Shown piece by piece: positions 1-206 of a stretch of DNA of 206 nt (the stretch's first letter is position 1; each line of letters opens with the position of its first letter). The stretch comes from Escherichia coli (GTDB lineage Bacteria > Pseudomonadota > Gammaproteobacteria > Enterobacterales > Enterobacteriaceae), in the NCBI RefSeq assembly GCF_003334405.1, contig NZ_QOWM01000079.1; one strand, given 5' to 3'. The notes beneath the pieces are model-generated. The model was not told where the DNA came from. It did not search any database and worked only from the letters and a program-made list of their open reading frames with translations. The translations under genes and the position numbers were made by a program.

Positions 1-26
1 CGGCGTGAACGCCTTATCCGGCCTAC
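1..26 (+). repeat. Y-type REP, 5'-truncated by window edge (CGGCGTGAACGCCTTATCCGGCCTAC)
   Basis: Identical to the 3' 26 nt of the full Y REP at 86-119 except for A8 versus G101 in the loop; ends in the characteristic GGCCTAC tail. Confidence 0.8.
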
Positions 27-43
27 GAATGGCGCAAGAATCT

Positions 44-72
44 GTAGGCCTGATAAGCGTAGCGCATCAGGC
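44..72 (-). repeat. Z-type REP (Z2-like), inverted relative to the Y REPs
   Basis: Reverse complement of 44-72 is GCCTGATGCGCTACGCTTATCAGGCCTAC. Imperfect palindrome: 48-54 GCCTGAT pairs with 66-72 ATCAGGC; inner GCG 57-59 pairs with CGC 63-65; AA bulge at 55-56; loop TAG 60-62. Same GCCTAC tail as the Y REP but read on the opposite strand. Confidence 0.75.
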
Positions 73-85
73 ATTTGCCACCACT

Positions 86-119
86 GCCGGATGCGGCGTG
101 GACGCCTTATCCGGCCTAC
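86..119 (+). repeat. Y-type REP, complete (GCCGGATGCGGCGTGGACGCCTTATCCGGCCTAC)
   Basis: Imperfect palindrome: 86-92 GCCGGAT pairs with 109-115 ATCCGGC; 95-98 GGCG pairs with 103-106 CGCC; loop TGGA 99-102; internal mismatch GC/TT at 93-94 versus 107-108. Matches the E. coli REP consensus as I recall it. Confidence 0.85.
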
Positions 120-136
120 GAGTGGCGCGAGAATCT

Positions 137-165
137 GTAGGCCTGATAAGCGTAGCGCATCAGGC
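137..165 (-). repeat. Z-type REP (Z2-like), inverted, second copy
   Basis: Identical in sequence to 44-72 and offset by exactly 93 bp. Confidence 0.75.
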
Positions 166-178
166 ATTTGTCACCATT

Positions 179-206
179 GCCGGATGCGGCGTGAACGCCT
201 TATCCG
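179..206 (+). repeat. Y-type REP, 3'-truncated by window edge (GCCGGATGCGGCGTGAACGCCTTATCCG)
   Basis: Begins with GCCGGATGCGGCGTG exactly as at 86-100 and continues with the AACGCCTTATCCG seen at 8-20; runs off the window end. Confidence 0.8.

Follow-up and report, generated by a model that had tools for sequence, protein, structure and literature searches.

The stretch of Escherichia coli DNA analysed here (206 nt, hereafter the window) raises the question of what kind of element it belongs to and what that element does between the genes that flank it. The window was found to match E. coli K-12 339858-340063 exactly. There it lies between yahG and yahI, two genes on the same strand that are separated by 421 bp, and the REP element at yahH has been named REP23 (PMC4765031 and PMC11551758). 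Because the K-12 match is exact, the identification as REP23 is not plausibly refutable: REP23 of K-12 and the window are the same element, and the window covers 2.2 of its 3.9 units. The reading as a whole, in which the window is the interior of the catalogued REP23, a non-coding Y/Z1 array in the yahG-yahI gap of the yahDEFG-IJ cluster, with the origin and the function proposed below, is considered highly probable. REP23 is an already known, ordinary element, which is annotated in K-12 as an EcoCyc/GenBank repeat and discussed in print, and as a discovery it matters little, REP/BIME arrays, their copy-number variation among strains and their effects on mRNA having been studied since the 1980s.

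Architecture and folding of the array

The layout of the array was obtained by mapping against REP consensus sequences. The repeated unit of 93 nt consists of a Y REP, a 17-nt linker, an inverted Z REP and a 13-nt linker. Window positions 1-206 were resolved by Tandem Repeats Finder into 2.2 copies with a period of 93 (94% matches, score 377), and two 93-nt copies at 95% identity, together with a third partial copy at 187-206, were obtained by a repeat search. The initial annotation had described an enterobacterial REP/BIME tandem array that contains no unique sequence, begins and ends with truncated Y REPs and continues past both edges, and all of this was borne out: the 2.2 copies of the 93-nt unit and the mapping to REP consensus sequences fit such an array, 1-206 is accounted for by REPs and linkers, both edge elements were mapped as truncated Y REPs, and the array in the K-12 locus (L002, 4758-5115) spans window positions -100 to 257, with 101 nt beyond the left edge and 51 nt beyond the right one. 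When the region was extended and the units were counted, as had been advised, 3.9 units were found in K-12, made up of four Y and four Z palindromes (eight in all) in strict +/- alternation of REP orientation. The flanking genes, which had been placed outside the window, were identified as yahG and yahI, and the expected placement within an operon, 3' of a stop codon, agrees with the position of the array between these two co-directional genes. The distance from the yahG stop to the first REP is 13 nt in the K-12 allele, and REP23 fills most of the 421-bp gap.

The left end of the window (1-26, + strand) is formed by the 3' 26 of the 34 nt of the second of the four K-12 Y REPs, with no mismatch to the Y consensus; the 8 nt missing from its 5' end (GCCGGATG) fall outside the left edge, and the full REP is located at L002 4851-4884 (window -7 to 26). 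It is followed by the 17-nt tail-to-tail linker GAATGGCGCAAGAATCT (27-43), which carries no IHF site, and by a short 29-nt Z REP of the Z1 type (44-72, - strand, 0 mismatches), which is inverted and is read on the + strand as 5' GTAG plus the palindrome. The 13-nt head-to-head linker ATTTGCCACCACT (73-85) then leads to the complete third Y REP of K-12 (86-119, + strand), which has 1 mismatch to the Y consensus and bears in its loop (GTGGAC) an A>G change peculiar to this unit. The second 17-nt tail-to-tail linker GAGTGGCGCGAGAATCT (120-136), the second inverted short Z REP of the Z1 type (137-165, - strand, 0 mismatches) and the 13-nt head-to-head linker ATTTGTCACCATT (166-178), which is the commonest 13-nt linker of REP23, are followed by the first 28 of the 34 nt of the fourth K-12 Y REP (179-206, + strand; L002 5037-5070, window 179-212), the last 6 nt of which (GCCTAC) lie right of the window. 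Overall, the linkers were about 3-fold more variable than the palindromes.

By definition, a REP palindrome has at its base the conserved tetranucleotide GTAG, which reads CTAC when the opposite strand is taken (PMC3333891). GTAG/CTAC was borne by or adjoined all five palindromes of the window, with CCTAC at 22-26 and 115-119 and GTAGG at 44-48 and 137-141. Both Y and Z are imperfect palindromes of the 30-40-nt kind with stem-loop folding, and a two-base stem mismatch was read from the sequence of each (GC opposite TT in Y, AA opposite GC in Z), at which an internal loop appears in the predicted folds. The array occupies an extragenic position, after the end of yahG and before the beginning of yahI, the overlapping yahH CDS failing the coding tests described below. 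Matches to the window sequence occurred in 5425 of 5426 E. coli genomes, at a median of at least 19 places in each, and 39 Y-type units were found in about 330 kb of MG1655.

As RNA, the Y hairpin (86-119) was calculated to fold at -21.3 kcal/mol on the + strand and -19.5 kcal/mol on the - strand, and the Z hairpin (44-72) at -11.5 and -13.2 kcal/mol, respectively. The whole gap folded at -194.5 kcal/mol, compared with -154.7 +/- 5.9 kcal/mol for shuffles (z = -6.7 for the sense strand and -7.2 for the antisense strand). Across 22 distinct K-12 copies, the Y-type stems were paired in 233 of 242 cells (96%), versus 29-43% when the partner column was slid, and in strain NRG857C two Y stem pairs had both of their partners changed together. 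Variable columns made up 14/30 in linkers and 14/63 in REPs (Fisher p = 0.028).

Assignment to a BIME class

The array had been called BIME-2-like in the initial annotation. The tandem alternating architecture implied by this label holds, but the Z is the 29-nt short form (Z1) and not the 36-nt Z2. Against the definition of BIME-2, REP23 was thus found to contain the Y with the 29-nt Z in place of Z2, while its multiple tandem alternating copies and the variation in its length from strain to strain (0-5 units) are those of a BIME-2. The definition of BIME-2 also names short linkers (S, and s/l/r) in place of the long L linker; the 13-nt and 17-nt linkers of REP23 are homologous to those of REP325, with 9/13 identical positions for ATTTGTCACCATT and 11/17 for the linker at 27-43, as counted by hand. 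In a survey of MG1655, the short Z was otherwise found in single Y-L(IHF)-Z pairs, i.e., the BIME-1 arrangement, and because it sits in this architecture it was assigned to Z1; all other sampled tandem arrays (the rayT flanks, fre-fadA, rhaD-rhaA and REP325) use the 36-nt Z2. A provisional Z2 label for the short Z was dropped, since REP325 and the rayT flanks, which are Y/Z2 in the papers, carry the 36-nt Z. A printed consensus for Y, Z1 and Z2 was looked for and not found in Ton-Hoang 2012, Nunvar 2010, Messing 2012, Tobes 2006, Harris 2026 and Hsu 2006.

BIME-1 elements (RIB/RIP) share with REP23 the combination of Y and short Z placed tail to tail, and the palindromes of four MG1655 BIME-1 loci matched at 0-1 mismatches. 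They consist of a single pair, whereas REP23 repeats the pair in tandem, with as many as 5 units, yet one unit is present in about 44% of the sampled E. coli. They are also joined by a long L linker with an IHF site, conserved over 34-35 nt and containing AAATTCAATAAATTGCA, whereas the linker of REP23 is 17 nt long. When the IHF site WATCAANNNNTTR was searched across the REP23 unit, the best match was 11/13 (2 mismatches); in genuine BIME-1 linkers the corresponding sequence, AAATTCAATAAATTG, departs from the same site by 1 mismatch. Sequences similar to the BIME-1 flanks gtgcgcgttgttcat and aatcttacgcttgtc border REP23 at the 23-nt left junction of the B2-type alleles (..GTGCGCGTTGTctct), which separates the array from the yahG stop, and at the right flank (AGTCTGGCGTTGGTC).

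Any other combination of Y, Z1, Z2 and linker motifs, usually in multiple copies, is termed an atypical BIME (PMC3333891, PMC1187871), and this definition fits REP23 by exclusion (Y plus Z1, short linkers, tandem). REP23 is therefore most aptly classed as an atypical BIME of the Y/Z1 tandem kind, whose linkers resemble those of BIME-2 and which lacks an IHF site. Before an array is labelled BIME-2, its Z palindrome itself needs to be examined, and the usage of Z1 and Z2 is inconsistent in the literature.

The yahH reading frame

The whole window (1-206, + strand) is the interior of the annotated CDS yahH (b0322; "protein YahH" in PGAP), which was judged spurious. Repeats lying inside a long conserved ORF had been named in the initial annotation as a finding that would speak against its reading. 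A CDS is indeed annotated across the array, yet it is unconserved, because yahH is missing at 0-1 units, is read in EHEC in a frame other than that of K-12 and shows no codon-position bias. That yahH is a real protein-coding gene, by which the array would be translated to a repeat protein and would have roles as DNA, RNA and protein (the "triple function" that Neuhaus et al. 2016 proposed for the yahH locus), is regarded as extremely improbable, although a CDS has been annotated as b0322 in the MG1655 genome and placed by PGAP in many genomes. Two + strand frames are stop-free through the array, but the period of 93 nt equals 31 codons, two of the three + frames are open, and an open frame therefore stays open at any copy number; the frame terminates wherever the linker is 16 nt. 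Ribosome footprints were reported over the 465-nt EHEC ORF X002 (RPKM 56, coverage 0.61; PMC4765031), but they were mapped by Bowtie default settings to a sequence that is repeated five times locally and occurs at about 19-39 places per genome, and no mass-spectrometry peptide is listed for X002.

Over most of their length, the frame read as b0322 in K-12 (AGCGVNALSGLRMAQESVGLISVAHQAF) is not the one read as X002 in EHEC (MRRERLIRPTNGARICRPDKRSASGICHHC), and no CDS is annotated in the 0-unit and 1-unit strains inspected. Variable sites were distributed 9/9/10 over the codon positions in both frames, and no model above cut-off was returned by an NCBIfam search of both open frames, SidA reaching 32.5 bits versus a cut-off of 35 over a 13-residue stretch. 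A conserved frame and product with a codon-position bias of substitutions, as expected of a protein-coding sequence, was not found for yahH. What is conserved is the palindromes rather than the codons, and yahH over REP23 is almost certainly not a real gene. PGAP still carries the yahH CDS into thousands of genomes; it should preferably be regarded as an artefact of annotation, produced by a repeat with a period that is by chance divisible by three.

Copy number and probable role of REP23

Among E. coli strains, REP23 was found with 0, 1, 2, 3, 4 and 5 units, which correspond to yahG-yahI gap classes of 95, 142/152, 246, 329, 421/432 and 514 bp, respectively; the strain-variable copy number anticipated in the initial annotation was thus found at this locus. 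In the gap sample (60 E. coli rows, with the unit number taken from the gap length unless the locus sequence was inspected), about 12% had 0 units and about 44% had one unit, together about 56%. With 0 or 1 unit in so many strains, a large array can be dispensed with. With regard to its origin, REP23 would belong to the REP/BIME family recognised by the host RAYT transposase via the GTAG tetranucleotide and the stem mismatch, the RAYT requirements having been described (PMC3333891); rayT is present in K-12. Units would be gained or lost through recombination or slippage between the near-identical repeats.

By analogy with REP325, the likely role of REP23 is that of an intercistronic RNA hairpin array by which the upstream mRNA is stabilised and read-through is attenuated. 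No sigma-70-like promoter and no intrinsic-terminator-like site were detected when the sense strand of the gap was scanned, and the array is therefore probably transcribed within the yah mRNA. The stable hairpins would block 3'-to-5' exonucleases, by which the upstream yahDEFG message would be stabilised, and would promote partial, Rho-assisted termination, by which read-through into yahIJ would be reduced; the unit count would serve as a dial, set differently from strain to strain, for the ratio of upstream to downstream expression. Liang and Deutscher are said to have reported in 2015 that a REP within about 15 nt or less of a stop codon impedes terminating ribosomes, and because the 13 nt between the yahG stop and the first hairpin in K-12 fall within this limit, that hairpin would also be expected to impede them; the 23-nt spacer of the B2-type alleles weighs against this effect.

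REP325 (BIME-2, yjdM-yjdN; naRNA1-6, RF02564) resembles REP23 in its tandem alternation of Y and inverted Z with 13/17-nt linkers, in its location between co-directional genes and in its start 14 nt past the yjdM stop (13 nt past the yahG stop for REP23). It differs in having a 36-nt Z2, a period of 100 and 6 units, versus a 29-nt Z1, a period of 93 and 4 units for REP23 in K-12, and the two arrays stand in opposite orientations relative to operon transcription. REP325 is reported to stabilise the upstream mRNA and to cause partly Rho-dependent attenuation, and across the genome the ratio of upstream to downstream expression is raised in tandem gene pairs that contain REPs; the authors also stress that REPs act in a context-dependent way and that mRNA half-lives are not uniformly changed (bioRxiv 10.64898/2026.03.23.713779). 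The Z hairpin of REP23 is the weaker one (-11.5 to -13.2 kcal/mol versus about -20 kcal/mol for Y), and because of this and of the orientation opposite to that of REP325, the barrier strength of REP23 may differ.

Other roles of the array were weighed against this one. The Rfam model RF02564 (naRNA4) matched the - strand of the window, antisense to the yah operon, at 47-116 (72.4 bits versus a gathering score of 59.5) and at 140-206 (66.6 bits, cut by the window edge; 78 bits when complete in L002); scores on the + strand were 52.7 and 42.6 bits, under the gathering score, and only weak microRNA noise (E > 0.1) was obtained from other Rfam families in the window. Many REPs were reported to be transcribed, and naRNA4 from REP325 to bind HU (Qian et al. 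2015, PMC4550694); it is nevertheless very unlikely that REP23 units are naRNA4-like RNAs, i.e., that they are transcribed and cut to two-hairpin RNAs which bind HU and condense the chromosome via REP-REP contacts. The above-threshold matches are on the antisense strand, for which the lone promoter-like site found is a predicted one inside yahI (L002 5232-5205). True REP325 units score 95-111 bits on the model, versus 72-78 bits for REP23, the second hairpin of which is 7 nt shorter than the model and is Z1 rather than Z2. No nucleoid compaction by REP325/naRNA4 and no HU-dependent REP-REP contacts were observed in a preprint (bioRxiv 10.64898/2026.03.23.713779) from a group that includes Adhya, the senior author of the 2015 naRNA4 paper, and the Rfam match at REP23 is therefore taken to reflect mainly the shared REP sequence. 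It also appears unlikely that REP23 is a high-affinity binding and cleavage site of DNA gyrase (and a binding site of Pol I), which would serve as a supercoiling buffer in the yah operon independently of repeat transcription. Tandem Y/Z arrays have been reported as strong gyrase binders, BIME-2 more so than BIME-1 (summaries in PMC2817692 and PMC1475751), and REP23 has the tandem architecture and linkers resembling those of BIME-2, but the affinity figures come from Y/Z2 arrays while REP23 is Y/Z1, and the common 0-unit and 1-unit alleles argue against such a site. A gyrase-site role would be compatible with the mRNA-stabilising and attenuating one.

A GC-rich palindromic element was found at the orthologous yahG-yahI site in every genus examined. 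In other genera the palindromic repeats at this site differ from Y/Z1 units, and we take them to be Klebsiella/Kluyvera species-specific units and BoxC-like repeats. Such repeats, which take up the orthologous gap both outside Escherichia and in E. coli strains with 0 units, are GC-rich palindromes just after the yahG stop like REP23; unlike REP23, they are unrelated in sequence, occur as single copies or pairs and form no 93-nt array. In the comparison across species, loci with gaps of about 1.69 kb and yahG-like tails ending in WRDRYC(Q) were set aside; by tail and gap size, they appear to belong to a paralogous allG/ylbE-type cluster. The different repeat families in different genera are what a permissive landing pad between genes would be expected to hold, and together with the free variation in presence and copy number (0-5 units in E. 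coli), the linkers drifting faster than the palindromes, and a sloppy duplication in E. albertii that carried along the 3' end of yahG, they speak for selfish or neutral repeat DNA without host function at a site that tolerates insertion and amplification of RAYT-mobilised palindromes. This explanation is possible but doubtful: a stable GC-rich hairpin stands directly after the yahG stop in every genus examined and is kept even where there is no evident multi-copy repeat (C. amalonaticus, Raoultella and Enterobacter), which suggests that a structured element is useful there, and the genome-wide biased expression of REP-containing tandem pairs also argues against neutral DNA. Rather speculatively, the yahG-yahI junction may be selected for some stable hairpin array and not for a particular sequence, with the 0-5 units as a mutable rheostat of the yahDEFG:yahIJ ratio; unrelated palindromic families (Y/Z1 BIME in Escherichia, Klebsiella/Kluyvera-type, BoxC-like and, elsewhere, simple GC hairpins) fill the same site, and if this reading were true, unit number in E. 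coli would be a heritable and quickly mutable setting. With its 0-5 units, the locus provides a clean natural allelic series on which the terminator/stabiliser model of REP325 can be tested.

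Layout of the window and of the complete array in K-12

A tandem period of 93 nt was detected across the 206 nt (2.2 copies, 94% matches, score 377 by TRF), and a second repeat search of the window returned two full copies at 95% identity together with a third, partial one. Each 93-nt unit contains two imperfect palindromes in opposed orientations. Palindromes were mapped with REP consensus sequences, and the mapping was backed by perfect or near-perfect matches in the window and at other E. coli loci. The resulting layout was a Y REP without its first 8 nt (window 1-26), a 17-nt linker (27-43), an inverted short Z REP (44-72), a 13-nt linker (73-85), a complete Y REP (86-119), a 17-nt linker (120-136), a further inverted short Z REP (137-165), a 13-nt linker (166-178) and a Y REP without its last 6 nt (179-206). 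Therefore, the initial annotation, in which the window was described as wholly repeat with 2.2 units and an incomplete Y REP at each edge, was accurate.

Among the matches listed by megablast for 5,426 complete E. coli genomes, exact full-length matches were located at a single locus and in K-12-like chromosomes only (K-12 coordinates 339858-340063, beneath a CDS annotated as 'yahH'). Partial matches were found in 5,425 of the 5,426 genomes, at a median of at least 19 places per genome, as is expected of REP sequences. In MG1655, the window lies in a 421-bp gap between the yahG stop codon (339741-339743) and the yahI start (340165), and both genes are on the plus strand in the yahD-yahJ cluster. 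The whole array (positions 4758-5115 of L002, the fetched MG1655 region) is composed of four Y REPs and four inverted Z REPs (3.9 units); 13 nt separate it from the yahG stop and 50 nt from the yahI ATG. It thus exceeds the window by 101 nt on the left and 51 nt on the right, in agreement with the earlier expectation of continuation past both edges, and its flanking genes proved to be co-directional. The final tail-to-tail linker in K-12 (L002 5071-5086, window 213-228) is 16 nt instead of 17 nt (GAGTGGCGCGAGAATT), a form shared with the single-unit alleles and, in the O157-type allele, with unit 4.

The element is REP23, which has already been catalogued as 'yahH (filled with REP23 sites)' by Moore et al. 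2024 (PMC11551758) and 'the REP23 containing gene yahH' by Neuhaus et al. 2016 (PMC4765031). The yahG-REP23-yahI locus was also detected on plasmid records (120 places with the flank query), e.g. the 242-kb record of XL1-Blue (NZ_CP132549.1). This copy is presumably on the F' episome, the bearer of a lac-proximal chromosomal segment.

Type of the Z palindrome and BIME class

BIME-1 is defined as one Y and one Z1 in single copy with a long L linker often carrying an IHF site, BIME-2 as Y and Z2 with short linkers in many tandem copies, and atypical BIMEs as the remaining combinations, which are multi-copy as well (PMC3333891, PMC1187871). An assignment of the short Z to Z2 was rejected: Z is 36 nt in the MG1655 sequence both of REP325 (the array between yjdM and yjdN), termed Y/Z2 by Qian 2015 (PMC4550694) and Harris 2026 (bioRxiv 10.64898/2026.03.23.713779), and of the rayT flanks, termed Y/Z2 and 'BIME-2 on both sides' by Nunvar 2010 (PMC2817692) and Ton-Hoang 2012 (PMC3333891). 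The MG1655 REPtron palindromes were labelled z1 by Messing 2012 (PMC3479197, Figure 1 legend) but z2 by the two latter studies; their sequence supports the assignment to z2, the 36-nt form. Because of this conflicting label, and because no printed Y/Z1/Z2 consensus sequences were found in the cited REP/BIME literature, about 330 kb of MG1655 were surveyed. Single Y-(34/35 nt)-Z pairs were located at 4080020, 4108571, 4127952 and 4137789, with a conserved linker including an IHF-like core (AAATTCAATAAATTGCA) and with the short 29-nt Z in all four. The tandem arrays other than REP23 in this sample, namely the rayT flanks, fre-fadA (6 units), rhaD-rhaA (9) and REP325 (12), all contain the 36-nt Z. 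Therefore, the short Z was assigned as Z1 and the long one as Z2, and REP23 is the only Z1-based tandem array within the ~330-kb sample.

The linkers of REP23 and REP325 are homologous (9/13 identical for the 13-nt linker and 11/17 for the 17-nt one), and no IHF-like site was found in REP23 (best match 11/13). REP23 is BIME-2-like by architecture and is best fitted by 'atypical BIME'. The initial annotation was thus largely right, and its "BIME-2-like" holds for the tandem architecture, but REP23 is no strict BIME-2, since it carries the 29-nt Z1 in place of Z2. Other Y/Z2 arrays have linkers of 7/15 nt (rhaD-rhaA, MG1655 4094316-4094717) and 14/14 nt (fre-fadA, 4027322-4027602), so that the 13/17-nt plan common to REP23 and REP325 is a shared sub-type and no general BIME-2 property. 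In the ppc-argE gap (4153413-4153692), a cluster of irregular layout (Y+ 89 nt Y+ 23 nt Z- 30 nt Y+) departs from strict alternation.

The Rfam naRNA4 model (RF02564, built from REP325) scored above its gathering threshold in REP23 on the minus strand only, i.e. antisense relative to the yah operon. The second hairpin was aligned with a 7-nt deletion, and the scores were 72-78 bits versus 95-111 bits for true REP325 units.

Variation of the yahG-yahI gap among strains and species

Gap length was estimated from the match span of a chimeric query (the last 300 nt of yahG joined to the first 300 nt of yahI), which matched in 5,049 genomes. Sixty rows spread down the ranking were taken and the 57 complete ones were classed; the class proportions are approximate since the sample was rank-stratified, not random. 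Mapping of one fetched representative per class gave 0 units for gaps of 94/95 bp (7 rows), 1 unit for 142 bp (16 rows) and 152/153 bp (9 rows), 2 units for 246 bp (1 row), 3 units for 329 bp (3 rows), 4 units for 421/422 bp (17 rows) and 432 bp (1 row), and 5 units for 514 bp (3 rows). The predicted strain-to-strain variation in copy number was thereby confirmed, at 0-5 units. The allele with 5 units is that of the O157 type, for which Neuhaus et al. (PMC4765031) described 'five blocks'.

The left junction, from the yahG stop to the first Y REP, has two forms, of 13 nt (cctacatgttcat; L002 4745-4757) and 23 nt (cctgcaaagtgcgcgttgtctct; 601-623 of the E. coli loci L005, L006 and L008). The latter is similar to the sequence that borders BIME-1 elements on the left (gtgcgcgttgttcat), a likeness that hints at growth of the array from a BIME-1-like unit, with loss of the IHF core from the linker. 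The 0-unit allele of strain Z142-2 (95-bp gap, L003 601-695) is not merely empty, and a different hairpin (cccttctcccttctggggagagggg) replaces the REP array. This hairpin resembles the BoxC-like repeats at the same site in Kluyvera and K. spallanzanii.

For other species, one genome each was scanned with a degenerate pattern of the YahG C-terminus and the yahG-yahI gaps were extracted. Y/Z1 units were present in E. albertii, E. whittamii, Escherichia sp. E1V33 and two 'Pseudocitrobacter' records (P. faecalis DSM 27453, L022, and an uncultured Pseudocitrobacter MAG, L027). Both of the latter have YahG tail and YahI N-terminal residues identical to those of E. coli, which could reflect horizontal transfer, close relationship or a mislabelled record; long Z2 and short Z1 are mixed in the L022 gap. 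In E. albertii NBRC 107761 (L020, 315-nt gap downstream from the match to the pattern at 4190-4212, minus strand), a duplicate of the yahG end (its last ~45 nt, tttgagaaagccattcttggctggtgcgagcgttacggcgtttga) and the 23-nt left junction stand ahead of the second Y/Z1 unit. Amplification here involves about 162 nt with the gene end included, not the 93-nt unit. No E. coli-type REP was found in the gaps (79-195 bp) of Kluyvera, Klebsiella, Raoultella, Enterobacter and Citrobacter amalonaticus, each of which has another GC-rich palindrome directly past the yahG stop (L023, L038, L046, L048, L055, L057, L059 and others). These palindromes belong to unrelated families between genera, some gaps containing paired GTAGCCCGGG...CCCGGGCTAC units and others ccctctccc/gggagaggg hairpins, as in the E. 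coli 0-unit allele. Conservation across genera is confined to the ~37 nt ahead of the yahI ATG (cataaccccatcaccctctgtagcggacataacaac).

Coding status of yahH and proposed role of the array

The evidence says that yahH is not a gene. Long ORFs arise automatically, because the period of 93 nt is a whole number of codons (31) and the unit is free of stops in two of its three plus-strand frames. The products of K-12 b0322 (..AGCGVNALSGLRMAQESVGLISVAHQAF..) and EHEC 'X002/yahH' (MRRERLIRPTNGARICRPDKRSASGICHHC..) are in different frames over most of their length. The frame is ended or shifted at every occurrence of the 16-nt linker, and the b0322 frame is ended by the 1-nt loss in the last K-12 tail-to-tail linker (L002 5071-5086). 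PGAP ORFs over the array differ from strain to strain, and the gaps of the fetched 0-unit and 1-unit strains have no PGAP CDS. The 28 variable columns among 20 units from seven strains are distributed over codon positions as 9/9/10 in either frame, with about 3-fold enrichment in linkers (14/30 versus 14/63 in palindromes, Fisher p = 0.028). Concerted changes on the two sides of the Y stem were seen at two pairs in strain NRG857C (GCG..CGC to ACA..TGT). No NCBIfam model matched the yahH frames above cut-off, and the X002 footprints were obtained by Bowtie default mapping on multi-copy sequence, with no mass-spectrometry peptide reported (PMC4765031).

The array is strongly structured on either strand (z = -6.7 and -7.2), with predicted hairpin energies of about -20 kcal/mol for Y and -12 kcal/mol for Z1; in an alternative fold, neighbouring palindromes pair across the linker (about -38 kcal/mol for each pair). 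The REP-associated transposase gene rayT is present in K-12. Neither a promoter-like nor an intrinsic-terminator-like site was found on the sense strand of the gap, and the array would be co-transcribed with yahG. REP325, which has the same plan and also lies between tandem genes, is reported to stabilise the upstream message and to cause partly Rho-dependent attenuation downstream (bioRxiv 10.64898/2026.03.23.713779). By analogy, REP23 RNA would shield the upstream message from 3' exonucleases and, through partial Rho-dependent attenuation, lower read-through into the downstream gene, with a strength that the unit number would set. In the K-12 allele, the first hairpin is 13 nt from the stop codon, and terminating ribosomes may also be hindered, an effect of such hairpins reportedly described by Liang and Deutscher in 2015.

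Gyrase binding by the array, a candidate role at the DNA level, is compatible with this RNA-level role. A purely selfish or neutral array is considered less likely.
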